Part shown: one piece after another, positions 4,857-50,972 of the stretch
How the letters are laid out: every line of letters begins with the position of its first letter
Numbering within the stretch: the stretch's first letter is position 1
IMG/VR virus record: IMGVR_UViG_3300033141_003735
Length of the DNA: 50,972 bases
DNA from: a virus
Direction: 5' to 3' (one strand)
Program-made: the position numbers and the translations under genes
The notes under the pieces: generated by a model
The model's database searches: none
What the model saw: the letters and a program-made list of their open reading frames with translations, nothing else
Told to the model about the DNA's origin: nothing

Positions 4857-5077
4857 TCCCTTCTTAATCTTCTTACTTCAAGCTGTAATTCTTTGACATA
4901 CCTCAGAAATTCGGGATTAACAATAAAATTCCCATCTTCTGTTATTCCCAATGGATTTGCTTTTATTATAGCAGGCGGATTCAAGACGTCATAACCTTGA
5001 TAAAGAGTAGGTGAATAGTTTGTGCAAGAACTAAAAAATAACAGCATTAAAAATATTAGAATTATTTTTTTTCTCAT
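4847..5077 (-). CDS. Small lipoprotein, either o-spanin-like or a superinfection-exclusion lipoprotein
   Basis: Signal peptide MRKKIILIFLMLLFFSSC with a lipobox-like Cys; mature part about 58 aa. Confidence 0.4.
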   Translation of the reverse strand: MRKKIILIFLMLLFFSSCTNYSPTLYQGYDVLNPPAIIKANPLGITEDGNFIVNPEFLRYVKELQLEVRRLRRECK

Positions 5078-5622
5078 CCAAATTTCCTTACAATATTCCT
5101 ACTATATTCAACAAATTCCTTATGAGTTCTCCCCCGTTTTGTACTATTGCATTCATGACAAATGATTTGAATATTATTTAAATTTATTTCATTACCATTG
5201 TTTATTCTATCTAATGATGGAGTGTTTCTATTAAGGCCTTTTCCATATTGGAAAATCAATTTTTTATTGCAATAAATACATTTCTTAGTTGTCTTTGCTA
5301 ATTTTTCCAAATCATCTGTTGATATATTTATTTTACAGCCTTTTTTCCTATGATTTGAAAGTGTAGTTATAACCCAAATACGATACGGGTTTTTATATCT
5401 AAATAATTTATCTTTATTTTCTCTATGCCATCGTCTATTACATTCAGCTGATTTTTCTGGGTTGTTTTTTCTCCATTTCCTTACCATTTCTCTACCTTTT
5501 TCTGGATCTGCTTGATATCTCAATCTTTTATTTTTAGCATATATAGGACGCAATTTTTTTTTATTTTTTTGATAATATTCTCGGTCATATTCTCTTTTTT
5601 TAACTGGATCCGCAAATGGCAT
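5074..5622 (-). CDS. HNH homing endonuclease-like protein
   Basis: C-terminal SLDRINNGNEINLNNIQIICHECNSTK (HNH/HNN motif) and a CxxC pair; AT-rich insert between the endolysin and lipoprotein genes. Confidence 0.7.
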   Translation of the reverse strand: MPFADPVKKREYDREYYQKNKKKLRPIYAKNKRLRYQADPEKGREMVRKWRKNNPEKSAECNRRWHRENKDKLFRYKNPYRIWVITTLSNHRKKGCKINISTDDLEKLAKTTKKCIYCNKKLIFQYGKGLNRNTPSLDRINNGNEINLNNIQIICHECNSTKRGRTHKEFVEYSRNIVRKFG

Positions 5623-6309: not shown

Positions 6310-6879
6310 TTACTTTTTTTTTGCCTGAGCATAACATGCTATAGAACAATATTTCCTAAGGCTTTGGGAGGGAAATACATAGAATATTTTCCCGCAAAAC
6401 TCACATTGCTTTCTTACCCTTGTCGCTGACTTTCTGCCTTTTTTGTAGAGTACATATTTATTTAACATCTCCTGCATATAAGTGTTTCTGTTTCTCTCTA
6501 TGTAAATTTTATGGATTTGGGCATCGCAGAATTCGCAGGCGGTTTTCTTCCTGCACTCCTCAATCCTGCGTTGTGCTTCTTTTTTCGTAGTGGGTAACCA
6601 CCTTGCCGAACCCCACTCACCCCAGACATATAAAGACCGGATGTCCATTTCATTATGCCATTTGTTTTCACTTCTTTTAATGAGTTCCTCCTTTATTTTA
6701 TAACCAAGTTTTATTAAAGCTTTATATTCTAATTGACGAACTCTTTCTTTGCTAACTTTAAAAACATCAGCTATTTCTTGTAAAGTTTGAATTGCTACAA
6801 CGTCTATCCCATATCTCATTTTTAAAATTTTTCTTTCCCTTTGAGTTAAACCACTAAGAACATAAACCACTAAGAACAT
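6310..6879 (-). CDS. Sigma-70 region 4-like HTH protein fused to zinc-ribbon modules
   Basis: LSGLTQRERKILKMRYGIDVVAIQTLQEIADVFKVSKERVRQLEYKALIKL matches sigma-70 region 4.2. Followed by CEFC...C and CEFCGKIFYV..RKYCSIAC. Confidence 0.7.
   Translation of the reverse strand: MFLVVYVLSGLTQRERKILKMRYGIDVVAIQTLQEIADVFKVSKERVRQLEYKALIKLGYKIKEELIKRSENKWHNEMDIRSLYVWGEWGSARWLPTTKKEAQRRIEECRKKTACEFCDAQIHKIYIERNRNTYMQEMLNKYVLYKKGRKSATRVRKQCEFCGKIFYVFPSQSLRKYCSIACYAQAKKK
6848..6879. repeat. Perfect 16-bp tandem duplication (aaaccactaagaacat x2) at the 5' end of the sigma region 4-like gene
   Basis: Read directly: 6848..6863 equals 6864..6879. Confidence 0.9.
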
Positions 6880-10697: not shown

Positions 10698-11135
10698 TTA
10701 TATTTCTTCAAATTCTAAATCAAAATTTAAGAATTTTATTAGTTCGTTCTTATCAACAAATTTAATTTTTTTAGATATTAAACATTCTATTGCAGTTTTG
10801 CTATCGTAAGGATAATTTCCTCTTACTAAGAAAATATCAAATTTATAATCCATGATAACCGTCTTATTTAAAATTTTAAATAATTTTGGTAAAAAGTTAC
10901 GAAATAATCTTTCCTGTCCTCTTTTCATGGATTCGTTATAATTTTTAGATTCAATTAATCTTAATCTCTTAAGATAAACTTTTTGAATTATTAAATCTAC
11001 ATTTATAGCCGTCATTTTATGGTCACAATTTTTGTCAACAAATTTATTTAGAGCTGACCCATAATATTTAAGTTCATTTTCATTTTTATACCATTTTTTC
11101 TCTGGTACGCAATCTGGTAAATTTAGTTGACTCAT
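10698..11135 (-). CDS. Hypothetical protein, weak PD-(D/E)XK-like motif
   Basis: INVDLIIQKVYLKRLRLIESK gives a D-x15-E-x-K spacing; very AT-rich; directly downstream of the methyltransferase. Confidence 0.3.
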   Translation of the reverse strand: MSQLNLPDCVPEKKWYKNENELKYYGSALNKFVDKNCDHKMTAINVDLIIQKVYLKRLRLIESKNYNESMKRGQERLFRNFLPKLFKILNKTVIMDYKFDIFLVRGNYPYDSKTAIECLISKKIKFVDKNELIKFLNFDLEFEEI

Positions 11136-12115
11136 ATGCTTTTTAACCTTTTTGTTATGATTTTGATATTTTCTTCTTCATTGTCTATCGCTAAAACTTT
11201 TCTTTTTAATTCATGACAAGCAATTGGTATTGTCCCGCTACCTGCAAATGGATCTAAAATTAAATCATTTGGTTTGGTAAAGATTTTTATTAAAATTTTA
11301 ATCTCATCCTCTGCTTGTTGCCAGGGATGACCTTCTTTTTCTCTCCCCGTTCCTTTAATTACATCTTCAATTTGATTGTTTATTCTTTTAAATGGTTCTT
11401 TTTGATATATTAGAATTGGTTTATAACCACAAAAAATACTTCTTGGATTTATTAATTGTTTAACTCCAGTGTGTAATATTATAAATTGCCAGTAATAGAC
11501 GAGATTTTTTTCAAAGATCTTAAAAACTTTATTTAGATTTAAAATTCCACTATAGGTAATTAGAAAACCACTCGGTTTTAACACTTTTTTTGCAATTAAA
11601 GATAAATCTTTCCAATCTTTTAAATATTCTTTTGAATATGGGGGGTCTGTTATTATTGCATCAATAGAACCTGGAGGGATTTTTTTGGACTGGTTCTGGA
11701 ATTTTCCTTTCCAAATTTCAATGGTCTTAGGCAATGGAATGTTGTCAAACTCTTTTTCTTTTAACTTATTTTCAATTTTTAATTGAGTCTTTTTTTTCTC
11801 TTTTTTTATAATTCTTATCTCAGAAACCGCTGAATCTATTGAGGATACAGCCAAATCGGAATTCGAATTCCGATTTAATATTTTATGTTCTTTATAAATA
11901 TATTTATATTTCCGTGCTTGTCTTTCTCCAAAGTCTAAATTTTTATTAATCCAATCTATCCACTCGCCATGCTTTAATTTTGCTTTTTCTTGTGTTAATA
12001 AAAAACCTATTCTTTTCCCTTTATTCAAAGCGTTATAAAATCCTTGCTGGATTTCTTTGTGTAATTGATTAATTTCATGAACATTATCTTTAACCATTTC
12101 TGTCCTACTCATCAA
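11132..12115 (-). CDS. DNA methyltransferase (beta-class N6A/N4C, DPPY)
   Basis: Motif IV IITDPPYSKEY precedes motif I ILDPFAGSGT. N-terminal GEWIDWINKNLDFGERQARKY looks like DUF3102. Confidence 0.8.
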   Translation of the reverse strand: MMSRTEMVKDNVHEINQLHKEIQQGFYNALNKGKRIGFLLTQEKAKLKHGEWIDWINKNLDFGERQARKYKYIYKEHKILNRNSNSDLAVSSIDSAVSEIRIIKKEKKKTQLKIENKLKEKEFDNIPLPKTIEIWKGKFQNQSKKIPPGSIDAIITDPPYSKEYLKDWKDLSLIAKKVLKPSGFLITYSGILNLNKVFKIFEKNLVYYWQFIILHTGVKQLINPRSIFCGYKPILIYQKEPFKRINNQIEDVIKGTGREKEGHPWQQAEDEIKILIKIFTKPNDLILDPFAGSGTIPIACHELKRKVLAIDNEEENIKIITKRLKSI

Positions 12116-12254
12116 TCCTCCTGGTAAACTTAACCACGTCTGAAATGTTATGGATAATAATTTTTCCTGATTTTTCTTCCATAAGAAGAATTATTTTTCC
12201 CTTGTATTTAAGGGCAAAAAAATTTTCAATTCTAATTATCGTGAATTTTCTCAT
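12105..12254 (-). CDS. Small hypothetical protein (49 aa)
   Basis: My translation: MRKFTIIRIENFFALKYKGKIILLMEEKSGKIIIHNISDVVKFTRRIDE. ATGA overlap with the HNH stop. Confidence 0.3.
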   Translation of the reverse strand: MRKFTIIRIENFFALKYKGKIILLMEEKSGKIIIHNISDVVKFTRRIDE

Positions 12255-12955
12255 CTTGAAAATCCCCCTCTTAAATATAATTGATTATTTTCAATATCTT
12301 GCCGATAATCTGCAATTTTAATATGTTTCTCTAAATTACATTTAGCACAAAGTATTTGCAGATTATCATAATCATTAGAACCACCTTTAGAAATTGGGAT
12401 GATGTGATCCACATGAAATTTTGTCTCGCATTTTCTTTTACATTTTTCGCATGTAATAACCCCATAATGAAGAATATTATCATTTATAATTTGACTGATA
12501 ATGCCTTTTTTGATTGTTCCGTTAACTCTTCTTTTTAAATTGTCTCGTCTAATACATAATTTTCCCGCAAATGATTGACGGTATTTTTTACTATATATTT
12601 TTACCCTCGCTTTTATTCTATCCGAATTTTTTTTATAATATTCCTTAAGAATTTCTTTGCGTCCTTCATTATATTTTTTCATATATTTTAATTTTTTATT
12701 TCTTAGTTTTTTTGCATTTAATTTATATTTCTCTTTATTTTCTAATGCATAATTTTTATAATATTCTGGATTTTCTCTTTTCCATTTTCTCCAAATCTCT
12801 TTCTTTTTTTCTGAATTATTTAACGCCCATCTTTTCATGGCCAATCTCATTTTTTCTGGATTTTTTCTTCTCCATTCTTTCATATAGCATTTTTTACATA
12901 ATCCAAAAGCTTCATGTTCCTTAAATTCCCCACAATTTTTGCAAATTTTTTTCAT
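12251..12955 (-). CDS. HNH homing endonuclease-like protein
   Basis: FHVDHIIPISKGGSNDYDNLQILCAKCNLEKH is a canonical HNH motif, with N-terminal CxxC...CxxC. Confidence 0.8.
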   Translation of the reverse strand: MKKICKNCGEFKEHEAFGLCKKCYMKEWRRKNPEKMRLAMKRWALNNSEKKKEIWRKWKRENPEYYKNYALENKEKYKLNAKKLRNKKLKYMKKYNEGRKEILKEYYKKNSDRIKARVKIYSKKYRQSFAGKLCIRRDNLKRRVNGTIKKGIISQIINDNILHYGVITCEKCKRKCETKFHVDHIIPISKGGSNDYDNLQILCAKCNLEKHIKIADYRQDIENNQLYLRGGFSR

Positions 12956-13459: not shown

Positions 13460-15271
13460 TCATCCCCCTAGCCTTTCAATATTCACCTTGTAGTAAGTTT
13501 TGATTTCTAAATACTGTTTTTTGATTTCATCCGGAACTTTGTAAGATTTTCTTTCATATTCTTTTGACTCTATGAGAAAATCCCCTATGACAGCATTTTT
13601 GCCTTTCATCTGTTTTTTGATTTCATCATCAAGCTGTTTAAACTCTTTTGCAGATTCTTTCAGCTCTTCTCTCCTTAAAAGCTTAGCTTCCAGTTCTTCG
13701 TCAGAATAGATATCAAATCCAGGTCCATAATCTTGTCCAGGAAAACAGGATGTCTTACAGAAATCACAATTACGACATTCATCTGATTTTTCAATATCTG
13801 GCATTTCTTCTTTTTCTACATAGCTATTTACGACCTCAAGTTTTTTCAGGATTGATTCTGTATATTCTAAATGGTCATTGAGATTGAAATTCATCTGATA
13901 TTTTTCACCACTTCCTTTATTCTTGAATAGCAATATCCCTTCATCAGATCCATCCATAAGCATATATAAGAGTATCTGTGCGGGGTATTTCCGGATCCAG
14001 ATATATTTAGAGGTCAGCATTTCTTTTGGAGTTAATTTTTTAATAGCAGGGAAAATATTAGGTGAACAGCTCTTGATGTCTATAGGAATCAATTTCCCGT
14101 CTATTCTGATTTTCCCGTCAATATGTCCTGTAAGCTGAAATTTTTTCCATTCAAAAGAACGCTGCTGTTCAATGATGTCAAACCCAGCTTCTTCAAGTTC
14201 CCTTAATACCGCTTTTTCATGGAGGTTTCCTTCGTCAAATATCCTTTGGAGTCTTACGTCATGGAGCTGTTTTAATTCTGGCTTTAATCTGGACAGCACT
14301 AAAAACCTTACGCATGGATGCCCCGCTTCACTCGCTCTGTTATTGGGATGCGGATATTGTTTTATACGTTTTTCTGTTTCTTGATCTAATCTTTTTACGA
14401 TATCAAGCATTTTCTCGTTGCTTCCAATCCCATCAAAATCTTTTTTCACTTTACCGTATGTAGTCATGAGCCATTTTTCTGTCATTTTTGCAAGAGAATC
14501 GGCATAATGTTCTTTTCCGTCTTTGTCTTTCCATGCTGAATATTGTGCCAATAGTTCTTTAGCTCTTTTTTCATCATTGTTTGCCATCATTAAAAGCATA
14601 TCTCCAAGTTTCTTCTGGACCTCTTTTCCCTTCGCTGATAATCTGGCTTTAGCTTTCTGGCTTCCGGATTTATATTTAATGCCCTGGATCTTTCTGATAT
14701 CAAGCCCAGCTTCTTTCAGATCTTCTGTCGTAACGCTCATTAATCCTATGCACCTTTTTATAAGCCTGGAATAGAGGTTTGTCACAGCCTTTTTCCGGAT
14801 GTTTGCCATATCGATTTCATGGACTTCTTTCAGCTCTCCTCTTACCCAGCCAAAAAACTTATCACGCTGCGAACAGACTCCGATATCCTCAACATACCGC
14901 CCCAGTTTCTTTGAATAGGCTTTTCCAGTCGCTACATAAGAATAATATCTGCCCTTTTCATCCTCTGCCCATTCTTGTTTTAACCTCACTTCTGAAATAT
15001 CAATCCCCCAAGCTATGGCAATGTTCTCTGTCCCCCTATCCATAAGATAAGGTGAATCCTGCTGGAATACCCAGTCTTTTTCTTTTGTTAACCTCAGGGA
15101 AACGATTTTGATACGATTGAAAAACTCAATCTGTTTTTCTACTTTTTGGATCTCTTTTTCAATATCAATCATATCCTTAGAAACATTGATTATTGACATT
15201 TCATTGTCAGGGGCTTCGATTATTTCTTCCTCCCTGATTTCCCCATTTGTTACTTTTTCTTCATTACTCAT
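13460..15271 (-). CDS. Recombination protein: Rad52/ERF-like SSAP domain fused to a Cas4/RecB-like PD-(D/E)XK exonuclease
   Basis: N-terminal half has GVCSQRDKFFG...NIRKKAVTNLYSRLIKRCIGL, which is SSAP-like. C-terminal half has GHIDG...IDIKS plus the Cys cluster HPC...CRNCDFCKTSC. Confidence 0.5.
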   Translation of the reverse strand: MSNEEKVTNGEIREEEIIEAPDNEMSIINVSKDMIDIEKEIQKVEKQIEFFNRIKIVSLRLTKEKDWVFQQDSPYLMDRGTENIAIAWGIDISEVRLKQEWAEDEKGRYYSYVATGKAYSKKLGRYVEDIGVCSQRDKFFGWVRGELKEVHEIDMANIRKKAVTNLYSRLIKRCIGLMSVTTEDLKEAGLDIRKIQGIKYKSGSQKAKARLSAKGKEVQKKLGDMLLMMANNDEKRAKELLAQYSAWKDKDGKEHYADSLAKMTEKWLMTTYGKVKKDFDGIGSNEKMLDIVKRLDQETEKRIKQYPHPNNRASEAGHPCVRFLVLSRLKPELKQLHDVRLQRIFDEGNLHEKAVLRELEEAGFDIIEQQRSFEWKKFQLTGHIDGKIRIDGKLIPIDIKSCSPNIFPAIKKLTPKEMLTSKYIWIRKYPAQILLYMLMDGSDEGILLFKNKGSGEKYQMNFNLNDHLEYTESILKKLEVVNSYVEKEEMPDIEKSDECRNCDFCKTSCFPGQDYGPGFDIYSDEELEAKLLRREELKESAKEFKQLDDEIKKQMKGKNAVIGDFLIESKEYERKSYKVPDEIKKQYLEIKTYYKVNIERLGG

Positions 15272-17014: not shown

Positions 17015-17548
17015 TTATTTAATGCCTAACTTTTCCTTGATTTGTTTTAGTTCTTCAGGTGATATTCTTGGATGTGTTTTTCTCCAAAATTCAGCACGAC
17101 ATATAGTTGAACAAAATTTTGAATGTGGTTTTTTTGCTATATATTTCTTTCCGCAATTTTTACATTTTTTAGAATAAAGTCTTAATTTCTTCTTTTTCTT
17201 TTTTTTAGGAAATTCATTTTTAATAACAGGGTTTGAAAAAGCTATTCTGAAAACTTTAGTAGGATACGTAATATTATACCCATTCTTTCCGGCAAAAGAT
17301 TTATAGTGACCTATCCATTTATTTTCCAATTTGTTTAATAATTTTAAATCTTCAGTTTTTTCAAGAATGCGAAACGAAAAGACTTCTTTGCCATATTTAT
17401 TATACGAATTCTGTAAATGTACATTGAAATGCTTATTATTTTTTAAAAGATATTTATGGTTTGAAAGCCTTTTGTCTAACTGCCTAGATTGCCCAATATA
17501 AATTTTATTGTTCAATTTGTTTTCTATACAGTAAATTCCCGCATTCAT
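17015..17548 (-). CDS. GIY-YIG homing endonuclease-like protein with C-terminal zinc ribbon
   Basis: GIYCIENKLNNKIYIGQSRQLDKRLSNH...NGYN is the GIY-YIG core. C-terminal CKNCGKKYIAKKPHSKFCSTIC. Confidence 0.8.
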   Translation of the reverse strand: MNAGIYCIENKLNNKIYIGQSRQLDKRLSNHKYLLKNNKHFNVHLQNSYNKYGKEVFSFRILEKTEDLKLLNKLENKWIGHYKSFAGKNGYNITYPTKVFRIAFSNPVIKNEFPKKKKKKKLRLYSKKCKNCGKKYIAKKPHSKFCSTICRAEFWRKTHPRISPEELKQIKEKLGIK

Positions 17549-42180: not shown

Positions 42181-42393
42181 TTATTCCTCCAATTTTTTGA
42201 CGAGCTCAGACTTTTTCATTTTACCAAAGCCAACTTCTTCTTTGATTTCTATAAACGGGTAAGCCCGAATAGCTTTGACTACCTCTTCATCGTTTATGGA
42301 AACAGGCCTGCCCTTTGGGAGAGAAACCTCTCCTAGAGGCGTAGGAATAGCTCGTCTAAATCCATGATTTATTACAACGGTCATTTTTAGCAT
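42181..42393 (-). CDS. Small head-module protein
   Basis: 70 aa, overlaps the capsid gene stop; C-terminal KMKKSELVKKLEE is HeH-like. Confidence 0.35.
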   Translation of the reverse strand: MLKMTVVINHGFRRAIPTPLGEVSLPKGRPVSINDEEVVKAIRAYPFIEIKEEVGFGKMKKSELVKKLEE

Positions 42394-43484
42394 CCGTGCT
42401 CAAGGCATCTCAACAACACGCAAGCATTTACATTCTCTATGGTGCATCCAGTTTTAATAGAATAGAACACGTAGGTGGCTTCATCGGCTGCTTCTCTCTG
42501 GCTCTCAATTCTTATCTCTCTCTGCATTCCGATAATAAGATTATCCTTAGGGGTCAGAAGAACATCCGTGTACTCACCAGCTCCAACTTTACCGTCTTCA
42601 CCTGCATCAGGGTCTCCAAGAGTAGTGGGCATGAGCGGCACGTCAATAATTCCAACTTTGCCATAGGAGGTTGGGACTTTCCCTTGTAGTACCGCATCGC
42701 CAAGAGCAGTGCCTCTGCTCTGCAAGGCTTCAATGTAATCCTGGGACACTAGGTCTGAGTTCAGAAACCTCATCTTCTCAAGGCCATTATTAGCCTTGTA
42801 TATAGAAGGCATGTTCTTGACCATCTGATGATACTTGAACTCCCATCTATACTCATCCTTTAGATACTCAGCGATCTCTCCAGCCTTTTCAAATTCTGAT
42901 CCAGATTCACCACCATCACAGGCATCCTTTATGTGAGCTCCACCCGATACGTCGTTGTAATACTGCTCTCCTGCTTGGGAGTGGGTGATTATGTACCGCC
43001 AGCCATCGAACAGGCTCTTGATATCATCAGCAGGCCAGTTGTTATTTCCGCCGCTTGACTCAGCCATGTAATAAGCCAACTCCAACTGATTAGCTATTTT
43101 AGCTGTGACTATCTTCATAAGATGGTCTTTAAACTTAGCACCCTCAATATTTTCTTCTAAGTCATCATCAAATACAACGACTGCACCTCTCATCTTGTGG
43201 GTATCCAGCGTAATTTTATTCTGGCCGAATTTCTTTTTGTATTTACTCTCATTAAAAACTCCTGCGGGGTAGAGGAAATCTCCATCACCAAAACCAATAG
43301 CTCTTATGAAAGCAGAAGGCTTATTCATTTTTTTAACTCGAGCAAAGTTCTTCATGGCAGTTTGGTCGACCACATAATCTATGAACTGGTCTGATTCCTC
43401 CGGAGTCAAGTCTATACCCGGCATGCTGATAAGATTGTATTTGTTAACCCTGATTCTTTCTAATAGTTTTTTACTGTCCTTCAT
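42387..43484 (-). CDS. Major capsid protein
   Basis: 365 aa, directly after the scaffold gene; call rests on size and position. Confidence 0.6.
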   Translation of the reverse strand: MKDSKKLLERIRVNKYNLISMPGIDLTPEESDQFIDYVVDQTAMKNFARVKKMNKPSAFIRAIGFGDGDFLYPAGVFNESKYKKKFGQNKITLDTHKMRGAVVVFDDDLEENIEGAKFKDHLMKIVTAKIANQLELAYYMAESSGGNNNWPADDIKSLFDGWRYIITHSQAGEQYYNDVSGGAHIKDACDGGESGSEFEKAGEIAEYLKDEYRWEFKYHQMVKNMPSIYKANNGLEKMRFLNSDLVSQDYIEALQSRGTALGDAVLQGKVPTSYGKVGIIDVPLMPTTLGDPDAGEDGKVGAGEYTDVLLTPKDNLIIGMQREIRIESQREAADEATYVFYSIKTGCTIENVNACVLLRCLEHGC

Positions 43485-43506: not shown

Positions 43507-44239
43507 TCATCCTAAAGAAGGCCATTTATCCCCTTCGTTTTTTTTCATGTCATCATCATCGTCATTATCTTGGTCGTCTAAGGATTTCTTTTTAGCCAAT
43601 TTCTTTTTAAGCTGAGCATTTTCTTCTTCCAGTTTTTCTACTCTCTTTTTTTCTTCCTCTTCCTTTTCCTTTTTGAGCTTCTCATATTCATCCAGTTTCT
43701 TTTTTATGTCTTCAGGGAGCTTATCTCTGCCGTCAGCTTTTTCTTTTTTCTCCTTGGTTCCAATAAGATTATCTATCATTTCTCTAATCTTTTGTAGCTG
43801 AGCTATTGTGGCTTTAGAAAGTGCCCTTCCGGCTTTTTCGATCGCCTCTTTTGTTAGGTTCTCCATATCAAATTTAGCTACTTTTCCAGTATCTGATTTT
43901 TCCGGATATCCATAAGAGACGTATTTGGAATTCAATGCCCCTTTAAGCTCAGCAGTGAAATCATCCTTGTATTTGGATAATATCTTATAAGCCCCTTTAA
44001 GAGCTGTCATAGCTTTCTCCGGGAGCTTCTCTGCTTTCTCCAGCATAGCCAGGATCTCTTCATCTTCTTCAAGTGCTTCTTTTATCTCCTCGTCTTCCAT
44101 AAACTTTTTAAGGTCTACCTTGTTAGAACCAGCCTTCTCCTCAAAAAACTTTTGAATTACTTCGATACTTTTTTTTATTGGCGGGCTTATCCACAATGCT
44201 TATTTCGTCTATCGAAATATTTTTAATCCAGCGTGGCAT
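43507..44239 (-). CDS. Scaffolding protein. The N-terminus is encoded from ATG 44239 in another frame and joins across an 8-nt homopolymer.
   Basis: K/E-rich coiled coil. GGAGG-ATG at 44239 gives MPRWIKNISIDEISIVDKPANKK, which continues as SIEVIQKFFEEK only after a +1 shift in the run at 44169..44176. Confidence 0.6.
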
Positions 44240-44500: not shown

Positions 44501-44644
44501 ATGAAAAAAATTATTTTTAATTTCCGTATTGAGGTAGATGTATTAAACAAATTAAAAAAGCTAGGCAAGGAAAAAGACAGAAGCATAGGTTATTTAATAA
44601 GGAAAGCTGTTCATGAATACCTCAAAGAGAATAGAAAAGTATAA
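44501..44644 (+). CDS. Ribbon-helix-helix (CopG/Arc-like) small protein
   Basis: My translation: MKKIIFNFRIEVDVLNKLKKLGKEKDRSIGYLIRKAVHEYLKENRKV. Confidence 0.55.
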   Translation: MKKIIFNFRIEVDVLNKLKKLGKEKDRSIGYLIRKAVHEYLKENRKV

Positions 44645-45640
44645 AAATAGAGACTGGTTATATAAGAAGTATGTCATAGAAAAACTTTCTGCATGTGAGA
44701 TTCAAAGGATCTGTTCAGTCGGAAACGGTACAATAGAAAGGTGGCTGAGAAAGTTTGGCATTGAAATCAGAAGTTACAGCGAAGCAATTAAGCTAATAAG
44801 GAAAAATAAATATTGGCATAGTGGTAATTTATCAAAACAAAAGATACAAAAGTACAGGAATAAGAATTGGCTATACCAGAAATATTGGGTAGAAGGCTTA
44901 GACTCGGTGCAGATGGCCAAAATTGTGGGAACCCAATCTAATGTAATTATGAGCTGGATTAGGGCTTTTAATATAAAAGTAAAGCCCAAAGGTGAAAACC
45001 AAAGAGGGCGAAAACATTATATCAGAAGAGTCTAAGCTCTTGATTTCTATAAAAGCCAAGAAAAGATGGCAAAGTAAATCATACCGAAAGAAGATGTCAC
45101 TTGTATTAAAAGGTCTTCAAGCAGGAAAAAATAATCCTAATTACGGGGGAGTTTATTCGAGGAAGAGATCGGTTAAAGAAAAAATTAGCAAAGCAAATAA
45201 AGGAAGAAAGATTAGTGAAGAAGAAATGGCTAGGCGTATTCAGTCATGGAAAACAAGGCCTTCTAAATTAGAGAAGATGTTTGATGATATTACTCCTCCT
45301 GAAATTAGATATACAGGAGATGGAGCCTGGTGGAGAAAACTAGATGAATGGGCATTATCATAATCCAGATTTTAAAGTCACTGGCCAGAATAAAGTAATA
45401 GAAATTTGGGGTTCGCATTGGCATAAAAACGATGATGGGTATTATCTGATTAATTTATATAGAAGAGCTGGGTTAGATTGCTTAATCATAAAAGAGTCTG
45501 AATTCTATCCTTTGACTAATTCTCCCTCTAAAAGGATTTTAAATAAAAATAGAAGGCTTAAAATACAAAGGAAGGTAAGGGCGTTTGTGAATGATAGCCC
45601 TAGCCAGTTGTTGCTGTCCCCCCCATTGAAAATCCGTTGA
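44613..45640 (+). pseudogene. Free-standing homing endonuclease gene (HTH repeats, NUMOD3-like, Vsr/DUF559-like PD-(D/E)XK) broken into three frames
   Basis: There are two copies of the HTH module: WLYKKY..IQRICSV..GTIERWLRKFGIEIRSYSEA and WLYQKY..MAKIVGT... NUMOD3-like motifs GKNNPNYGG and ISKANKGRKISEE follow. The nuclease core is PSKLEKMF...YTGDG / HYHNPDFKV..KVIEIWGSHWH. Frame changes occur near 44990..45005 and 45340..45350. Confidence 0.6.
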
Positions 45641-48335
45641 ATTTGCCTTCAATTATATCATTCCAGATTTCTTTCTCGTCTCCCAAATAGACGGAGATAT
45701 ACCAATCACCAGATTTGACCAGGTGGTTGTCCCCAGTGCCTCCCTTGTGATGGTCTTCTTCGGCCTGGTAGCATTCAATGATTTTAGCTTTAATAGGTTT
45801 TCCCTCGTGCATCAGCTTGATTTTTCCGCCCTTTATCATAAACTTTTTTAACGCCTTCCATATCTCTGAAGCAGAAGCCGCATCTCCCTGGGTATCTACG
45901 TCGTTTGCTGAGTACACAATACCACCTACGATATACTCTTTTTTGTTCACCTTAAGGAATCTAAAATAAGGAGAATCATCTTTTTTTATTATTCTTTCCA
46001 GGGCTTTTTTTATTTTCTCAGCTAGGCTACTCCACCACTCTTCCCAGTTTTTCTCCCCATAGGACGTTTTGCCAGCCACTACGATTCTAGGTCTGTTCTC
46101 AGTCCCTATATCTGAGATAGAAAACAACCCTTCTGATTTATCGATTTCCTCGCTTACTTTTTCAGCAAGAGAATCTAGGTTCTGGTCTCTCATGCGAAAC
46201 ACCACAAAGGCTACACGGTCTTTATCTTTACCCTCATCTGTGCTTCTTATCTCTACATGTGCTAAAGAATTTAAGCCCTCAAGCCAGGCATCTTTAATGT
46301 GTTTATCCACCATCAGGCCTTTCCAATTTTTTTTAGGTGAATCAGTTCGACCGCTTAAGGGCTTGGAAGGAACGACACCATAAACAGCTTTATATGCAAG
46401 CGTTGGGGAGTTTATACGTTCTTGCTTATCAACCTCTTTTTTATGGTCATCGTCGTCTAGTTTTCTCATCATCCAAATGCGCTTACCTTCCTCTGTTGGC
46501 ACATACGCCATAAGCCAGTTGCCGTCAAAGTGCCGGCTATTGGTAACGTGGAACTTCTTGGCATGCTCGTCAGCCTGGTAAAGAGACCAATTAAACTTAT
46601 CGATTCTTAACATAGCCGCATACATGTTTGCAGTTGCACCAACTTCCCCAGGCTCAAATATCTCTAGTTTGTTAACACCTGCTTTAAACCAACTCATAGG
46701 GCCTCGAATTATATCGATTTTAGTTTCGCCTTTTCTGGGAACCTTCCACCCAAATCTCAAGCTCTGACCTTTTTTGTACCCATAAATTTTATTCAGCCCT
46801 GAGAGGTTGCCTATCATAATCTCTCCACCCTCCCAATATTTATCTTTCTTTCTATGGAACCGTATATCTATATGGGCGCCCTGCTCTCCGATTTTATTCT
46901 TTAAGAGCTTCTCAAGATTCCTAAGGTCACCTCTGGCTACTATAGCTCGGTCTTTAATGTCCAGAAGGCTCTCGAGTTCTTTTTCCTCTATGCCCATTAT
47001 ATGAAGCTGAGCTACAGCATCACCTGAGTCGCCTTCTTCAAAATCTATGTTTCCCTCTACACTAGCCGCACCCTCTTCGTCCTTTACCTTTTTGAATTTG
47101 ACATTACGGATTACAGTCTGGACTCCCTGGGGGTACTCGTACTCTTTGGGCAGTTTGTACTTATCTACCCAGTCGAATTCGTAAGACCAAAGACTTTTCT
47201 CTTTATCGAAGCCCCAGTCCTTAGCCTCCTTATCAGTTATCTTATGTTTTTCTTTAAGGTCTTGGAATTCTTTTTGAGTAATCTTTATGGGCTTGTGGAA
47301 TTTAACCTCTCCATAGCACAAATCTCCACTGCATAGGAAAACAGTTTTCTCAACATACTCATCTGGGAGCTTCTTAATCTTAATAACTAGGTTCTTATCC
47401 CCATCAAACATGTACTTGCCATGAGGTTCCTGAAGATATATTCCCCGTCCGGAACCAATTGCTTTCTGTAGGATATTAGCCTTCTCTGCGATTTGTACAA
47501 CCTGGTTAGCATAATAAGGCTCTTTCCTCGCCTCGTCTTTATCAATCACCCTTGGGCCTAGCCAATCCAGTTTATTCTCGCTTGGGATAATCTCCTCAAT
47601 GCCTATAGTCAAAATATCCCCTGGGCTAGCATTTATCTTTGTGTTAAATGTCTTGCCTAGGTTCACTAGCTCCATATCACCAACACGGGTTATGTTTTGG
47701 TAGGGGCTATCTCCTTTCAATACCCCGCAGGTGTAGTTGTAATTGCCTCCTTTTACACTGTGCTTCTCTATGACCATTACTTTTATCTCAGCCTCTATTT
47801 TAAGCTTAGCCCAGCCTTCTATGCTTCCATCTACATCCCATATGCTTTCGATATCCTTGACCACAATCCCTTCAGACTGGGGATATTTAGCAAACTTTTT
47901 AAACGCTTTTTCTAGCTCGCTTTTATTGTTTACGACCTGGGTCTCTGTTATTTTAAAATTTTTAGATGACTTAAGATATTTATTATAGAACTCCTCAAGT
48001 TTTTTTCTTCTTTCACTAAAAGGCAATAGGTGTAGGTCTTTTTTCCAGAAAGGCAAATCGAAAACGGTACAGACTATTATTTCTCCTTCCGTAAGCTCTG
48101 GTTTATCAGCCATTAAAGTCATAAGCTTAATTCGAGGCAAAGGCTTCCCGTTCTTTTCTATACCCACTCCCCCGTCAAGAATGTAATCATCAGGTATCTT
48201 AGCTAAAACCTCCGTCAATGAAGCAAACTCTTTTGTTCTATCCTTACCACCTTCAGTCTTTATGCGGAATCTATCTCCTAATTTTTCAGCTATGCATCTA
48301 AAAGAATTAAGCTTTGGCTCAGCCACAAGTCCCAT
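45600..48335 (-). CDS. Multidomain head-module protein: ATP-dependent ligase-like NTase plus OB domains (N-terminally truncated), central domains (possible ASCH-like and LigD phosphoesterase-like), and a C-terminal XkdF-type prohead protease
   Basis: Ligase motifs are I KLNSFR (variant), III ILDGGV (variant), IIIa FDLPFW...PFSERRKKLEEF, IV SEGIVVKD and V GWAKLK. The C-terminus YIVGGIVYSANDVDTQGDAASASEIWKALKKFM...SGDWYISVYLGDEKEIWNDIIEGKFNGFSMGGTA matches XkdF. Confidence 0.6.
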   Translation of the reverse strand: MGLVAEPKLNSFRCIAEKLGDRFRIKTEGGKDRTKEFASLTEVLAKIPDDYILDGGVGIEKNGKPLPRIKLMTLMADKPELTEGEIIVCTVFDLPFWKKDLHLLPFSERRKKLEEFYNKYLKSSKNFKITETQVVNNKSELEKAFKKFAKYPQSEGIVVKDIESIWDVDGSIEGWAKLKIEAEIKVMVIEKHSVKGGNYNYTCGVLKGDSPYQNITRVGDMELVNLGKTFNTKINASPGDILTIGIEEIIPSENKLDWLGPRVIDKDEARKEPYYANQVVQIAEKANILQKAIGSGRGIYLQEPHGKYMFDGDKNLVIKIKKLPDEYVEKTVFLCSGDLCYGEVKFHKPIKITQKEFQDLKEKHKITDKEAKDWGFDKEKSLWSYEFDWVDKYKLPKEYEYPQGVQTVIRNVKFKKVKDEEGAASVEGNIDFEEGDSGDAVAQLHIMGIEEKELESLLDIKDRAIVARGDLRNLEKLLKNKIGEQGAHIDIRFHRKKDKYWEGGEIMIGNLSGLNKIYGYKKGQSLRFGWKVPRKGETKIDIIRGPMSWFKAGVNKLEIFEPGEVGATANMYAAMLRIDKFNWSLYQADEHAKKFHVTNSRHFDGNWLMAYVPTEEGKRIWMMRKLDDDDHKKEVDKQERINSPTLAYKAVYGVVPSKPLSGRTDSPKKNWKGLMVDKHIKDAWLEGLNSLAHVEIRSTDEGKDKDRVAFVVFRMRDQNLDSLAEKVSEEIDKSEGLFSISDIGTENRPRIVVAGKTSYGEKNWEEWWSSLAEKIKKALERIIKKDDSPYFRFLKVNKKEYIVGGIVYSANDVDTQGDAASASEIWKALKKFMIKGGKIKLMHEGKPIKAKIIECYQAEEDHHKGGTGDNHLVKSGDWYISVYLGDEKEIWNDIIEGKFNGFSMGGTATTG

Positions 48336-48885
48336 CGTCTTTTACCTCTAATTTTCCTAATAATAATTGATTTTCATATTCTAAAATTGAAATCCTTTCC
48401 TCTAATTCTTTAATCTTTTTCTTCATTGTGTTTATTTGGACATGATTGGCTTGGTTAGGTAATAACTCAAGATTTTCTATTCTATTATCATCTTTAATTC
48501 CATTTTTATGATGAACTACTTCCCAGGTTTCGAGACACCTTCCTAAATACTTTGCCATAACCAAACGATGTTCTCTGATATAACCATGATGATCAGCCAT
48601 TGGATAGAAAGGACTTTCTTCTTTTAGATTAATATATATATAACCTTCTTTTGTTTTAAGCTTCCCGCCTTTCCACCTTGGGTGGTCTTCTCGTTTATAG
48701 CCTATATTATTAAAAAGTTTTCTGCTACACTTAGCACAATGACCAGTATAATTAGGTCGATTCATTTTATTTAATTGAACCCATCGTTTCGAACCACAAT
48801 TTGGGCATATTACTAATCCATATTTATTCGAACCCTTTTTTCCTATTTCAAAGGGTCTCTTAACGTCTATAATTTCATTGTTCAT
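48319..48885 (-). CDS. HNH homing endonuclease inserted within the ligase-like coding region
   Basis: HHGYIREHRLVMAKYLGRCLETWEVVHHKNGIKDDNRIENLELLPNQANH is the HNH motif, with an N-terminal CPNC...CAKC zinc finger. The ORF starts 1 nt after the upstream stop and overlaps the downstream ATG by 17 nt. Confidence 0.8.
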   Translation of the reverse strand: MNNEIIDVKRPFEIGKKGSNKYGLVICPNCGSKRWVQLNKMNRPNYTGHCAKCSRKLFNNIGYKREDHPRWKGGKLKTKEGYIYINLKEESPFYPMADHHGYIREHRLVMAKYLGRCLETWEVVHHKNGIKDDNRIENLELLPNQANHVQINTMKKKIKELEERISILEYENQLLLGKLEVKDDGTCG

Positions 48886-48886
48886 T

Positions 48887-50089
48887 TCAAATCCTTTCTT
48901 TAGCCCAGTCCCATATCTGCTCTACTGTAAACGCCTCCGTATGAGTTAGAAAGCCGCTCATAGCAGGCTTAGGTGGAACAAACTCCCCAAACGGGGTAAG
49001 CTCTTTTTCCTTTTTAACCTTTGTCATCACGGCCAATGCTGTGTTTGAGGATTTTATAAGCTGAGACGACCAGCCCTTGCTTAGAATCTTTTTAAATTCA
49101 GTTAGGTTCTTGTACTCATGTTTATGGGTGGGGTCTTGTCTTTCGCCCAGAGGTACTATGACTATAGCTTTTTTCCTAGCCACTCTCTCCATTTCTTTAG
49201 CCAAAGACTTTGGATTGGTTACGTGTTCCAGCACATGGACTGCTGTCACGTTGTCAAATGAGTTATCTTCAAAAGGGATTCCTTTGTCTAAGTCATGCTC
49301 TTTGATATCGAGCTTCTTACCCCTTGCCATTTTAATAGCAGTTCTATCTACATCCACTCCCAGGACGTCCCTTCCATCTCCTTCCAGGAGCTTAAGAAGT
49401 TTTCCCGAACCGCAGCCTATGTCCAGAACCGAGCCTTTGCTTAGATTCTCAAGCACATGAGCATTGTCACAAAGAAGGCCTACATCCCAACTCTCTAATC
49501 CCTCATAATAATCCGCTGCTCTTTTAAGTTTAGCCTGTACGCTTTCCTTAACGTAAACTCTCTTAAGATTAGGTTTGACCCGAGCTACTAAATCAAAGAC
49601 AGGAATATAAGTGCTGTGAGGCCCACGAGGTGCATATACAAAATGCAAGTCTTTCTTTATTTGCCTCTTCAAGACCCTGCCTATTTTAAGCTCAAGGCCT
49701 TCGTCTCTATTTCTTGCATACTCCCGGATTATGATATCTAGGTCATTAGCTTCTCTCGGTCTCTTGACAAACGACCCCCCAATAGAAATATAGTCGTTTA
49801 CTATTACCTGGTCTCCTATGCTTTTAATATCAATTCCCGTCATGGCTTTTCTGAACGCCTCAATGTCCAAATCAGTTGTAGTGTGATGAGTGAGATTCCT
49901 CTTGTTCATCTCTCTTATGAGGATTTGATACTTGTCTATAAATTCAAAGCGGTCTAGTCCGCCGACCTCCCCACCTTCTCGGCCCTTGAGGTTCTTGTTA
50001 TAGAGCTGTATAAATCTAAGGCGCATGTTATATAGTTCTTTATCATTCTCCTTTTTGATTGATTTTGCTGTAATATTCTCTATTTCCAT
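48887..50089 (-). CDS. Pol-beta-type nucleotidyltransferase plus class I SAM methyltransferase protein, ending in the N-terminal segment of the ligase-like domain (start revised to MEIEN at 50089)
   Basis: ISIGGSFVKRPREANDLDIIIRE fits the GS-x10-DxD NTase motif. VLDIGCGSGKLLKLLEGDGRDVLGVDVD...VHVLEHV is the SAM MTase. The C-terminus is FVPPKPAMSGFLTHTEAFTVEQIWDWAKERI. Confidence 0.55.
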   Translation of the reverse strand: MEIENITAKSIKKENDKELYNMRLRFIQLYNKNLKGREGGEVGGLDRFEFIDKYQILIREMNKRNLTHHTTTDLDIEAFRKAMTGIDIKSIGDQVIVNDYISIGGSFVKRPREANDLDIIIREYARNRDEGLELKIGRVLKRQIKKDLHFVYAPRGPHSTYIPVFDLVARVKPNLKRVYVKESVQAKLKRAADYYEGLESWDVGLLCDNAHVLENLSKGSVLDIGCGSGKLLKLLEGDGRDVLGVDVDRTAIKMARGKKLDIKEHDLDKGIPFEDNSFDNVTAVHVLEHVTNPKSLAKEMERVARKKAIVIVPLGERQDPTHKHEYKNLTEFKKILSKGWSSQLIKSSNTALAVMTKVKKEKELTPFGEFVPPKPAMSGFLTHTEAFTVEQIWDWAKERI

Positions 50090-50090
50090 T

Positions 50091-50972
50091 TTACACCACC
50101 GCTGTGAACGTACATTCGCAGTTATGACTTGCAATATTATTAGCAATGTACCAATGGTTTTTGGTTTGCAAATTATATACATATCCGGTATAATATTCAG
50201 TATGGACACTAATGACTTTATCGAACTTTATAGGAAAGGGTTGTCCATTTATAAAATTGCTAATATCTATGGAGTTAGCCCCTCTTGGGTCTATTTCGTA
50301 GTTAAAAGAGCTGGGGTTAATAGGACACGCTCCGAGGCTTTGCGTCTCCAACCTAGGGAAAGATTTGTTGCCATGTCTAAAAAAGCAGTAATTGCTCGTC
50401 AAGGACGCGGACGGGAAATTACTTTTGCCGAACGGTTGCGTAGAGCCAAAACCCGTGAACTTAGACAATCCGCCACCGGCCCCACTGAAAAATTGGTTGT
50501 CATTGCTCTTAGCAAAAAAGGAATTCATGGTGTAGCCCAAAAGGCTATTGGTCCCTATAATTGCGACTTGGCCGTCGGGACTAACATCGCCGTGGAAATC
50601 CTCAGCACTTATTTTCGTTTTTACGGTAAGCGTAGACTTAGAGAGGAAAAACGACTCCGCAATTTGCTCAATTGGGGCTGGAATATAATTTATATTCTTC
50701 TTAATCCGCGAAATCCAGTTATAACCAACGTCCAAAGAGATAACGTAGTCTCCAAGATTCAAGAAATTAATAGGCACCCAACCGAAATTACTCAATACTG
50801 GATGATTGGGAGTAGCGGTCAGATTCTTGCCAGTGGTGGTTTTAATGATGATAACATCTCCCTCGTACCACCTTTTCGTAACTCCAGAGATCCTGCCACA
50901 GGGAGATACAAGAGAGTCCCCAGGTAGACAGTTCGGATGAACTGGAATTACCCCCTGTGCCTCATCAATCGT
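50091..50972 (-). CDS. Mu F/SPP1 gp7-like head morphogenesis protein, 3' portion: end of N-extein, 270-aa intein and 9-aa C-extein (CECTFTAVV)
   Basis: Continuous minus-strand frame ...TIDEAQGVIPVHPN|CLPGDSLV...NIASHN|CECTFTAVV*. Joins 1..906 through the terminal repeat. Confidence 0.8.
   Translation of the reverse strand, partial: TIDEAQGVIPVHPNCLPGDSLVSPCGRISGVTKRWYEGDVIIIKTTTGKNLTATPNHPVLSNFGWVPINFLNLGDYVISLDVGYNWISRIKKNINYIPAPIEQIAESFFLSKSTLTVKTKISAEDFHGDVSPDGQVAIIGTNSLLGYTMNSFFAKSNDNQFFSGAGGGLSKFTGFGSTQPFGKSNFPSASLTSNYCFFRHGNKSFPRLETQSLGACPINPSSFNYEIDPRGANSIDISNFINGQPFPIKFDKVISVHTEYYTGYVYNLQTKNHWYIANNIASHNCECTFTAVV
50166..50194 (+). promoter_or_regulatory. Sigma-70-type promoter (TTGCAA-17-TATAAT) antisense to intein block F, 7 nt upstream of the plus-strand ATG
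   Basis: TTGCAA at 50166..50171 and TATAAT at 50189..50194. ATG at 50202 with no Shine-Dalgarno site, implying a leaderless mRNA. Confidence 0.55.
50202..50927 (+). CDS. HTH plus Vsr/DUF559-like PD-(D/E)XK homing endonuclease encoded antisense, entirely within the intein
   Basis: The HTH is MDTNDFIELYRKGLSIYKIANIYGVSPSWVYFVVKRAGVNRTRSEA. The nuclease core is TGPTEKLVVIALSKKGIHGVAQKAIGPYNCDLAVGTNIAVEILSTYFRFYGKRRLREEKRLRNLLNWGWNIIYI. It shares the module family of 44613..45640. Confidence 0.65.
   Translation: MDTNDFIELYRKGLSIYKIANIYGVSPSWVYFVVKRAGVNRTRSEALRLQPRERFVAMSKKAVIARQGRGREITFAERLRRAKTRELRQSATGPTEKLVVIALSKKGIHGVAQKAIGPYNCDLAVGTNIAVEILSTYFRFYGKRRLREEKRLRNLLNWGWNIIYILLNPRNPVITNVQRDNVVSKIQEINRHPTEITQYWMIGSSGQILASGGFNDDNISLVPPFRNSRDPATGRYKRVPR

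Follow-up and report, generated by a model that had tools for sequence, protein, structure and literature searches.

In this study, we analysed a stretch of viral DNA of 50,972 nucleotides (IMG/VR record IMGVR_UViG_3300033141_003735; hereafter the window) with a focus on the minus-strand locus at 50089..45600, where predicted nucleic-acid enzymes and an XkdF-type prohead protease are encoded side by side among the head-assembly genes. Comparison of the predicted proteins with their homologues showed that this locus is a split copy of an ancestral single gene, cut by the insertion of an HNH homing endonuclease gene, and that related arrays are recurrently fused to prohead proteases, of the XkdF type in most members and of other families in a few. 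We propose, with a probability of roughly 0.5, that the array represents a cargo-protease polyprotein that is delivered together with the DNA to heal and seal nucleic-acid ends.

A split copy of a single ancestral gene

The locus comprises three tightly packed minus-strand open reading frames (48887..50209, 48319..48885 and 45600..48335). The first gene was taken to start at 50089 (50089..48887) because residue 1 of its homologues aligns with Met41 of the first frame (BLAST, 58 homologues), and the three frames within 50089..45600 thus encode proteins of 400, 188 and 911 amino acids (aa). An earlier description made from the letters of this DNA, the sequence-only reading, had reported three translationally coupled frames with the 400-aa one in front, and this layout was borne out: a single nucleotide separates the stop of the first frame from the ATG of the second, and the second and third overlap by 17 nt. 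The predicted features of the locus, all on the minus strand, are as follows.

49520..50089, minus: nucleotidyltransferase domain resembling the Pol-beta superfamily (residues 1-190 of the 400-aa protein)
49004..49522, minus: class-I S-adenosylmethionine (SAM)-dependent methyltransferase domain (residues ~190-362 of the 400-aa protein)
48890..49003, minus: first ~38 residues of the ligase adenylation domain, carried on the methyltransferase protein
48319..48885, minus: free-standing HNH homing endonuclease gene inside the ligase coding sequence
47790..48335, minus: ligase nucleotidyltransferase (adenylation) domain, motif I to V (residues 1-182 of the 911-aa protein)
47460..47789, minus: conserved region after the adenylation domain, "OB" (oligonucleotide-binding) by position only (residues 183-292)
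47061..47459, minus: ASCH (PUA-like) domain, an optional module (residues 293-425)
46428..47060, minus: divergent LigD-3'-phosphoesterase-like domain with a helical insertion of ~34 residues (residues 426-636)
45981..46418, minus: unassigned alpha/beta domain, a rare optional module (residues 640-785)
45603..45959, minus: XkdF-type prohead (head-maturation) serine protease domain at the C-terminus (residues 793-911)

The middle frame, which the sequence-only reading had counted as part of the enzyme array, proved to encode an HNH_3 homing endonuclease (Pfam, 46.6 bits against a cut-off of 24.8, E 2.6e-12; phrog_20891, E 3.5e-23), and its GC content is 0.32, with 0.39-0.45 in the flanks. Residues 41-440 of the first frame match residues 1 to ~400 of homologues that are 1000-1400 aa long, and a gapless multiple alignment continues from the end of the first frame (..WAKERI*) into the start of the third (MGLVAEPKLNSFR), where the homologues read WAKDR-E-LVAEPKLNGIR. 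The HNH gene is missing from all 19 of the displayed unsplit homologues, every one of which is colinear over the insertion site, and it therefore interrupts the ligase adenylation domain at a point five residues ahead of the motif-I lysine. Consequently this domain is not contiguous on one polypeptide here: ~38 residues (..FVPPKPAMSG..WAKERI*), colinear with the segment before motif I in the unsplit homologues, are on the 400-aa protein, and the remainder is on the 911-aa protein, where the DNA_ligase_A_M match sets in no earlier than position 22 of the 204 in the profile. A group I intron or an intein carrying the HNH frame was also considered and rejected, since the frame fills the gap, with a stop before it and an overlapping start after it, and an Rfam search detected no intron at the insertion site.

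The HNH split possibly persists in a second sample. A contig from another metagenome carries a ligase gene 99.6% identical to that of the window. In front of this gene stands a 38-aa gene fragment that shares 17 nt with the ligase start, just as the HNH gene does in the window, and the frames behind it are also those of the window; the contig is too short to show the entire HNH gene. A different two-gene arrangement was observed in the relative L011 (249-4039), whose array consists of two genes overlapping by 4 nt (a 579-aa nucleotidyltransferase-methyltransferase protein and a 684-aa ligase-phosphoesterase-XkdF protein) and no intervening endonuclease; a natural split, a programmed frameshift and an assembly error are all conceivable causes.

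Genes split by homing endonucleases can stay functional, as exemplified by NrdA of Aeromonas phage Aeh1. The nrdA-a/mobE/nrdA-b locus of that phage resembles the present one in that a homing endonuclease frame interrupts a highly conserved catalytic region, the gene pieces are translationally coupled and their products must reassemble; it differs in that the target here is a ligase domain in a head-module polyprotein. For the ligase to be active, and for the first half to be packaged, the two pieces would have to come together non-covalently. The HNH-split ligase offers a natural setting in which to see whether fragments of a nucleotidyltransferase complement each other.

We see only a small chance that the array has become a casualty in this genome, that is, that the HNH insertion inactivated the ligase and uncoupled the N-terminal half, leaving the protease alone under selection. 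The position of the insertion within the adenylation domain, so close ahead of the catalytic lysine, would suit such decay, as would the heavy colonisation of this genome by homing endonucleases. However, both reading frames are intact and the junctions are laid out for translational coupling, and the signature residues of the ligase, phosphoesterase-like, methyltransferase and nucleotidyltransferase domains are all kept, except for a serine in place of the motif-I glycine of the ligase, a change that the relative P0015 shows as well. The nearly identical ligase gene in the second sample, with the same upstream overlap and downstream frames, likewise argues against decay.

Family architectures and domain content

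A homologue search of 5.8 billion proteins recovered 58 relatives, most of them 1000-1400 aa long with methyltransferase, ligase and XkdF in a single protein; more than 40 homologues hold the domains of the array in one protein of this size, and the unsplit homologues comprise five to eight domains each. A profile of the phosphoesterase-like domain retrieved at least 523 clusters (50% identity) among 1.84 billion representatives, 191 of them at E up to 1e-30, and nearly all were multidomain proteins of 600-2000 aa, mostly terminated by XkdF. A local domain census of 196 family members gave these commonest and minimal architectures (NTase, nucleotidyltransferase; MTase, methyltransferase; Lig, ligase; PE, phosphoesterase-like domain).

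NTase-MTase-Lig-OB-PE-XkdF: 41 members of 196
NTase-Lig-OB-PE-XkdF: 27 members of 196
NTase-PE-XkdF: 20 members of 196
PE-XkdF: 8 members of 196

According to this census, the nucleotidyltransferase, the phosphoesterase-like domain and the protease are the constant parts, and the ligase is frequent but not universal. Additional modules were counted in a Pfam census of the 38 members that have unassigned stretches.

Lactamase_B_2: 12/38
UDG: 9/38
2H phosphoesterases: 6/38
Dam: 3/38
LigD_N: 2/38
Mu-like_Pro: 2/38
Acb1 (E 2e-29): 1/38
Peptidase_S78: 1/38

Furthermore, P0107 and P0193 gave weak, sub-threshold matches to the HK97-type protease TIGR01543 (E 9e-4 and 1.9e-3) and to a model of a prohead protease fused to a major capsid protein. 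The full architecture was found in none of the INPHARED phage genomes, where the best match was the 866-aa "ATP-dependent DNA ligase" of the ANME-1 archaeal virus ANMV-1 (KP703175). This protein shares with the window the nucleotidyltransferase family (GG..GDIDVFIR..HILY..LFDL), a ligase and a phosphoesterase-like segment (LHIHGRGKSVHGDLMF...QPGEVGAT), but it has neither methyltransferase nor protease, its ligase is only 26% identical, and its gene adjoins that of a MutT-like hydrolase and does not lie between portal and capsid genes.

The N-terminal domain is plausibly, but not provenly, a Pol-beta-like nucleotidyltransferase. The motif named in the sequence-only reading is present in the translation (IGGSFVKRPREANDLDIII), and the GS...DxD motif (ISIGGSFVKRPREANDLDIII), with the signature IGGS-x9-DLDIII, conforms to the pattern hG[GS]-x9-13-Dh[DE]h. 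Across 28 homologues G105, D116, D118, R122 and G156 are invariant and H149, H158, P163, D166 and R170 nearly so, D166 being a candidate third carboxylate. The earlier call is backed by this invariant motif and by weak matches: no Pfam family reached its threshold, the family profile found only DNA polymerase beta among PDB sequences (E 0.08-0.3, over the GSF...DMDVL palm segment), and the AlphaFold2 (AF2) model (predicted local distance difference test, pLDDT, 83.6) gave weak Foldseek matches to MNT antitoxins (E 0.05-0.3, probability 0.35-0.8).

The methyltransferase, ligase and XkdF assignments of the sequence-only reading all exceed their Pfam thresholds. For the methyltransferase, Methyltransf_11 scores 71.7 bits against a cut-off of 21.2 (E 8e-20), and the SAM motif LDIGCGSG is present. 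A profile search against PDB placed generic class-I enzymes first (3cc8, E 8e-17), and the best sequence-based structural relatives are small-molecule or RNA-type methyltransferases; Hen1 appeared only near rank 20, and assignment to a specific Hen1-type family is therefore unsupported.

The ligase assignment is based on PF01068 (DNA_ligase_A_M, residues 3-179 of the 911-aa protein, 65 bits against a cut-off of 26.2, E 1e-17). Among the NCBIfam models, DNA ligase D (TIGR02776, E 9.7e-19) and the ligase of non-homologous end joining (NHEJ_ligase_lig, E 1.8e-17) come nearest, yet the scores remain below the equivalog level (TIGR02776, 67.6 bits against 373; TIGR02779, 63.5 bits against 228); by its sequence, the ligase is LigD-like in type and not a LigD orthologue. 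In 54 sequences E6, K8, N10 and R13 (ExKxNxxR), D54, G58, F92-D93, the SEG of SEGIVVK and W..K.K are conserved at 80-95% or more, positions that we read as motifs I, III, IIIa, IV and V; this conservation points to purifying selection on the ligase. The sequence-only reading had described an OB domain as well. The region in question is contiguous with the adenylation domain in 57 homologues, but the NHEJ_ligase_lig model spans query residues 5-219 only, leaving most of residues 183-292 unmatched as an OB fold. We also considered an mRNA-capping apparatus, composed of the methyltransferase, a guanylyltransferase-like nucleotidyltransferase with OB fold and a triphosphatase-like barrel. It was rejected, as Pfam and NCBIfam place the nucleotidyltransferase among DNA ligases and LigD, and the barrel aligns with the LigD phosphoesterase and not with triphosphate tunnel metalloenzymes.

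Residues downstream were mapped by BLAST segment mapping, an AlphaFold2 model of residues 285-800 (pLDDT 87.6) and Foldseek, which disclosed two domains that the sequence-only reading had overlooked together with the gene split. The first, at residues 293-425, is modelled with pLDDT >90 and resembles ASCH domains in PDB (2dp9, E 5.8e-5, TMt 0.67; ZmASCH, E 7e-4) and in BFVD, where several ASCH-named proteins were matched at E 1e-7 to 2e-3 (ranks 3, 7 and 10); the two strongest BFVD matches, an uncharacterised Mimivirus protein (E 8e-12) and a DUF72 protein (E 2e-10), do not bear this name. ASCH is present in only ~10 of the first 58 homologues, elsewhere in the chain in some of them. The second, at residues 640-785, is modelled with pLDDT ~80-90 and had only weak YbjN/AmyR-like Foldseek matches (E 0.014-0.04); it occurs in few relatives and precedes the phosphoesterase-like domain in P0007.

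These features bear on the possibility that the cargo repairs RNA, in particular tRNA, of host or phage origin, that has been cut by anticodon nucleases or other RNase defences. The phosphoesterase would then remove 2',3'-cyclic or 3' phosphates and the ligase would join RNA, while the methyltransferase would 2'-O-methylate the junction as in Pnkp/Hen1 and ASCH would bind RNA; we regard both the repair itself and these accessory roles as unlikely. Motif I reads KxNG instead of the KxDG typical of DNA ligases, and KxNG occurs in tRNA ligases. ASCH domains are associated with RNA (the ribonuclease ZmASCH and the ac4C amidohydrolase YqfB), the class-I enzyme is of the O/N-methyltransferase type with invariant H..EH and DPTH and matches bacterial Hen1 (E 5e-8) and TIGR04074 (E 1e-5), and 2H/LigT phosphoesterases occur in 6/38 relatives. 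Nevertheless, the ligase is nearest to LigD/NHEJ ligases and Pfam DNA_ligase_A_M, Hen1 is far from the top methyltransferase match, no architecture of the censuses includes a 5'-kinase domain, and the UDG and Dam modules of relatives indicate DNA.

The phosphoesterase-like domain appears to be a divergent relative of the LigD phosphoesterase superfamily, with a predicted activity only. Its segments GAHIDIRFHR, FGWKVPR and EPGEVGAT are present in the translation, and its invariant residues include H445, H488, D490 and R492 (QxH...HxDxR; protein numbering). The family was aligned by hhalign with six genuine LigD phosphoesterase domains taken from annotated plasmid ligD genes. With the 34-column modelled helical insertion removed, 133 columns aligned (Prob 80%, P 1.5e-5), pairing QxH...HxDxR of the family with FVIQKH...HYDFRLE of LigD; with the insertion kept, the C-terminal half only aligned (P 2.5e-4). 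The real score of 39.7 compares with at most 23.8 for 30 column-shuffled controls and 14.4 for an unrelated profile. In addition, LigD profiles match the domain in register in relatives, and P0107 and P0193 contain it in tandem with a canonical Pfam LigD_N (E 2e-15). The catalytic residues of the LigD phosphoesterase are His42, His48, Asp50, Arg52, His84 and Tyr88 (P. aeruginosa numbering), of which Tyr88 aligns with Trp in the present domain, and a different invariant His (EHAKKF) exists. The resemblance seen by the sequence-only reading is therefore upheld by hhalign and by the cross-matches of relatives, but the domain misses the Pfam and NCBIfam thresholds and the equivalent of His84 is gone: LigD_N (PF13298/TIGR02777) gave no Pfam match in the window protein even at E up to 10 and no NCBIfam recognition. 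The family profile searched with HMMER against PDB sequences returned chance matches and no phosphoesterase structure; the domain model is beta-rich with pLDDT >90 (AF2).

The array thus resembles bacterial LigD in its best NCBIfam ligase models, in an adjacent remote phosphoesterase homologue with His-His-Asp-Arg, and in a nucleotide-adding domain within the same polypeptide. It differs from LigD in scores far under the equivalog cut-offs, in a motif I with Asn for Asp, in a phosphoesterase-like domain with a 34-residue helical insertion and no His84, and in being encoded within a phage head module as a fusion with a methyltransferase and a capsid protease. Its nucleotide-adding domain is also Pol-beta-like and not a polymerase of the archaeo-eukaryotic primase type, a domain for which Pfam scans of the 400-aa and 911-aa proteins found no match.

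The minimal members NTase-PE-XkdF and PE-XkdF, free of ligase, invite yet another explanation, in which the nucleotidyltransferase and phosphoesterase-like pair would leave polynucleotide ends alone and would destroy or sequester the nucleotide second messengers of CBASS, Pycsar or type III CRISPR, with ligase and methyltransferase as add-ons. Acb1 in one relative, Lactamase_B_2 in 12/38 (the fold of the anti-Pycsar enzyme Apyc1) and 2H phosphodiesterases in several would fit such anti-signalling cargo. We nonetheless judge it very unlikely, as the phosphoesterase-like domain aligns with metal- and phosphate-binding residues of a DNA-end phosphoesterase, stands in tandem with canonical LigD_N or, in most members, directly after a LigD-type ligase, and showed no likeness to known ring nucleases in searches with HMMER against PDB and with Foldseek.

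Protease fusion and proposed delivery with the DNA

The first and last 111 nt of the window are identical (1-111 and 50862-50972) and the MuF reading frame stays open over the joined ends, which identifies the window as a complete genome, circular or circularly assembled, with a length of 50,861 bp. With portal and terminase at 1178-4060, the order on the circular genome is terminase-portal-MuF-array-scaffold-capsid. The sequence-only reading had advised a search for homologous architectures and their synteny with portal, Mu F and capsid genes, and the same order, with the polyprotein in the place of the array, was indeed found in the relatives L001, L002 and L011; in these and in the window the protease gene is located between MuF and the scaffold/capsid genes.

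The XkdF domain matches Peptidase_S78_2 (PF14550) at residues 793-909 with 60.7 bits against a cut-off of 24 (E 1.8e-16) and the head maturation protease phrog_3017 (E 8e-19); D, H, E and the Ser of GFSMGG are nearly invariant. It is homologous to the N-terminal protease of the ul36-type protease-scaffold proteins of Lactococcus phages. In the P335 group (gp35 of phage 56701) the homologous XkdF is ~30% identical and likewise encoded between portal/minor head and capsid genes, but there the protease is N-terminal and is followed by a region that looks scaffold-like by eye, with no enzyme cargo. Specifically, residues 26-151 of the 349-aa protein DS56701_35 (L009 4926-5975) match the XkdF domain of the window, and the protein has no methyltransferase similarity. 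The label "DNA methyltransferase" given to phrog_1530 and to the Lactococcus genes appears to be a mis-annotation of an XkdF protease with a scaffold-like region.

We suggest the following course of events. As the homologues show, an ancestral single reading frame between MuF and scaffold/capsid encoded the nucleotidyltransferase, the methyltransferase, the ligase with its "OB" region, optional inserts (ASCH and the unassigned domain in the window), the phosphoesterase-like domain and XkdF; in this genome the array is made as a 400-aa protein (nucleotidyltransferase, methyltransferase and ~38 aa of ligase) and a 911-aa protein (the remainder). The protease moiety would enter the procapsid along with the scaffold, bringing the enzyme array, and would then cleave both array and scaffold. 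The released enzymes would remain in the head, exit with the DNA at the next infection, and heal and seal nucleic-acid ends ahead of any phage gene expression. The likeliest substrate would be the phage's own DNA, which would be circularised or mended at nicks, restriction breaks or damaged ends. Cleaning of 3' ends would fall to the phosphoesterase and addition of nucleotides to the nucleotidyltransferase, and sealing would be the task of the ligase, which may be pre-adenylylated. The extra modules of relatives (UDG, Dam, metallo-beta-lactamase (MBL) fold, 2H/Acb1 and canonical LigD_N) might serve as further repair or anti-defence cargo. Carriage by the protease, cleavage of the array, exit with the DNA and early action on ends are steps that we infer from gene order and domain content. 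Loading of the cargo is made plausible by the conserved place of the array in the head module and by the fusion of related arrays to prohead proteases of three different families.

Several points weigh against this proposal. First, the XkdF domain forms the very end of the protein with no obvious C-terminal capsid-targeting tail, ~25 members have no detectable protease, and in P0055 a Mu-type protease (Mu-like_Pro) is near the N-terminus. The nucleotidyltransferase-methyltransferase half is moreover a separate polypeptide in the window genome and in L011; the attachment of the array to the protease, as claimed in the sequence-only reading, accordingly applies to the unsplit homologues, whereas in the window this half is not covalently joined. 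Second, 28 members of the NTase-PE-XkdF or PE-XkdF type are without a ligase, so sealing is not an invariant function, and motif I of the ligase is ExKxNGxR family-wide, with Asn replacing the usual Asp. Third, the position of LigD His84 aligns with the Gly of RGPxxW in the phosphoesterase-like domain, and no LigD phosphoesterase was among the top 50 Foldseek PDB matches of a three-domain query model. Finally, the methyltransferase is not recognisable as a DNA methyltransferase from its sequence, the (D/N/S)PP(Y/F/W) motif of DNA-amino-methyltransferases being absent from the 400-aa and 911-aa proteins.

The enzymes might also act during assembly, either tethered to the protease in or at the procapsid or just co-expressed late, for example sealing nicks, trimming or modifying ends, or methylating the packaged DNA, and then be degraded or expelled without delivery. 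In the best-studied heads, prohead proteases and scaffolds depart after maturation; the array belongs to the late head module, and the window protein has no recognisable features of ejection proteins. We nevertheless consider this course distinctly unlikely, given that the supply of ATP and SAM within a procapsid is doubtful and that the Acb1, MBL-fold and Dam modules would, judging from known Acb1 and Dam, be most useful early in the next host cell. The logic of polyvalent proteins (PMC5512222) likewise favours delivery. Overall, we rank DNA end repair or circularisation above RNA repair, followed by action in assembly only, degradation of nucleotide signals and decay after the split.

Polyvalent proteins of phages and conjugative elements (Iyer, Burroughs, Anand, de Souza, Aravind 2017, PMC5512222) are the closest described class. 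They, too, combine several unrelated catalytic domains on one polypeptide in the virion module, carry a C-terminal prohead peptidase and have been proposed to be delivered with the DNA, and their variable modules include methylases, Pol-beta nucleotidyltransferases, 2H phosphoesterases and ADP-ribosyltransferases (ARTs). The assemblin-like peptidase, if present, is always C-terminal and probably processes the protein in assembly (PMC5512222). In contrast, the text of that paper (PMC5512222) contains no ATP-dependent DNA ligase, LigD phosphoesterase, ASCH or XkdF. The commonest processing peptidase of polyvalent proteins is a zincin-like metallopeptidase and their hallmark methylase is the DarB-type DNA methylase-helicase dyad; both are absent here. 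Two or more disparate domains in a virion or transfer context, by which such proteins are defined, were found in the unsplit homologues in head-module synteny, and one BFVD structural neighbour is annotated ART-PolyVal-like. The array thus fits the polyvalent-protein concept, and literature searches for a ligase/prohead-protease fusion gave no description of one. The sequence-only reading had not recognised the combination as a described system; the specific LigD-like combination indeed appears undescribed, but its general class is that of the polyvalent proteins.

Loading of cargo under protease control has well-known parallels. The internal proteins (IPs) and Alt of phage T4 (via gp21) and the Dar proteins of P1 are enzymes or anti-restriction proteins that enter the procapsid, undergo trimming by the head protease and accompany the DNA on injection. 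Those are separate proteins that use short targeting peptides or partners; the cargo of the window, unlike them, was ancestrally fused to the protease itself. A fusion of this kind might be exploited to bring engineered cargo into capsids.

A stronger version of the proposal is tentative, and we would sooner doubt than endorse it: a virion-delivered, host-independent DNA end-repair kit, analogous to LigD but built of different parts (a Pol-beta-like nucleotidyltransferase, a divergent phosphoesterase domain and a LigD-type ligase), loaded by covalent fusion, released by the protease, injected with a ligase that may be pre-adenylylated, and circularising or repairing the genome within seconds of its entry. 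It would be, to our knowledge, the first encapsidated DNA ligase or NHEJ-like system in any phage; the virion cargo known to us so far consists of RNA polymerases, ADP-ribosyltransferases and anti-restriction proteins. If true, such an end-repair kit would be common among uncultured phages, many of which stem from subsurface and sediment-type samples. Packaging would more generally make the array a virion-borne, ligase-centred toolkit that repairs or circularises DNA, or undoes nuclease defences, before expression begins. The family may also be regarded as an unexplored phage group and as a catalogue of candidate anti-defence modules (Acb1, MBL-fold, 2H, UDG and Dam) on a common delivery handle.

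Neighbouring genes, other homing endonucleases and the intein

Four further features lie near the array.

50091..50972, minus, continuing to ~1170 past the circular junction: MuF-like head gene, 3' part, with an intein
44613..45640, plus: three overlapping homing-endonuclease-like reading frames (140, 123 and 98 aa) between the protease and scaffold genes
43507..44196, minus: probable scaffolding protein, 229 aa, charged and rich in lysine and glutamate
42387..43484, minus: major capsid or virion structural protein

The scaffold candidate, named from its position before the capsid gene and its composition, had no Pfam or PHROG family match; a pair of genes of 203-240 aa and ~367 aa comes after the polyprotein in relatives as well. 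The capsid assignment relies on phrog_1623 (E 1.4e-47), and that of the MuF-like gene on phrog_15127 (head protein) and Pfam Intein_splicing. In the head module of L001 (13123-16063) and L002 (11640-14580), the polyprotein is separated from the scaffold/capsid genes by three metabolic-looking genes, which encode a zinc alcohol dehydrogenase, an E1 dehydrogenase component and a short-chain dehydrogenase.

The three plus-strand frames match the HNH endonuclease-associated helix-turn-helix (HTH) repeats phrog_8446/7545 (E 6e-20) and weakly NUMOD3, and both GC and AT skew change sign exactly at 44613-45640. They may be one homing endonuclease in pieces; they are not sequencing errors, because the same three frames recur in the second sample. 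More homing-endonuclease-like genes are present on the minus strand at 5074-5622, 6310-6879, 12251-12955 and 17015-17548, namely two HNH/endonuclease VII-like, one sigma-like HTH with a weaker HNH-family match and one of the GIY-YIG type. Together with the three near the array, at least seven such genes were counted in this 51-kb genome, an unusually heavy load.

The MuF intein region reads CLPGDSLV...IASHN|CECTFTAVV, and the MuF gene of one relative is likewise intein-bearing. Antisense within the intein lies a 241-aa gene (50202-50927, plus) with an HTH and a Vsr-like endonuclease region. Its homologues reach values as low as E 1e-37, and one is annotated as a very-short-patch-repair endonuclease. 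TTA, CTA and TCA codons are absent from this gene (P ~6e-6 given the codon usage of the genome), which keeps the intein frame open throughout; the other two minus frames have 22 and 13 stops. On sequence grounds this looks like a MuF intein with a homing endonuclease encoded antisense to it, an arrangement for which a limited literature search gave no description.

PADLOC returned nothing informative for the window. Two further genes were identified in the early region: one for a 603-aa protein that includes a Cas4-domain exonuclease (13460-15271, minus; phrog_1990, E 2e-24), and one for an N6/N4 DNA methylase, distinct from the methyltransferase of the head module, at 11132-12115 on the minus strand (Pfam, E 4e-16).

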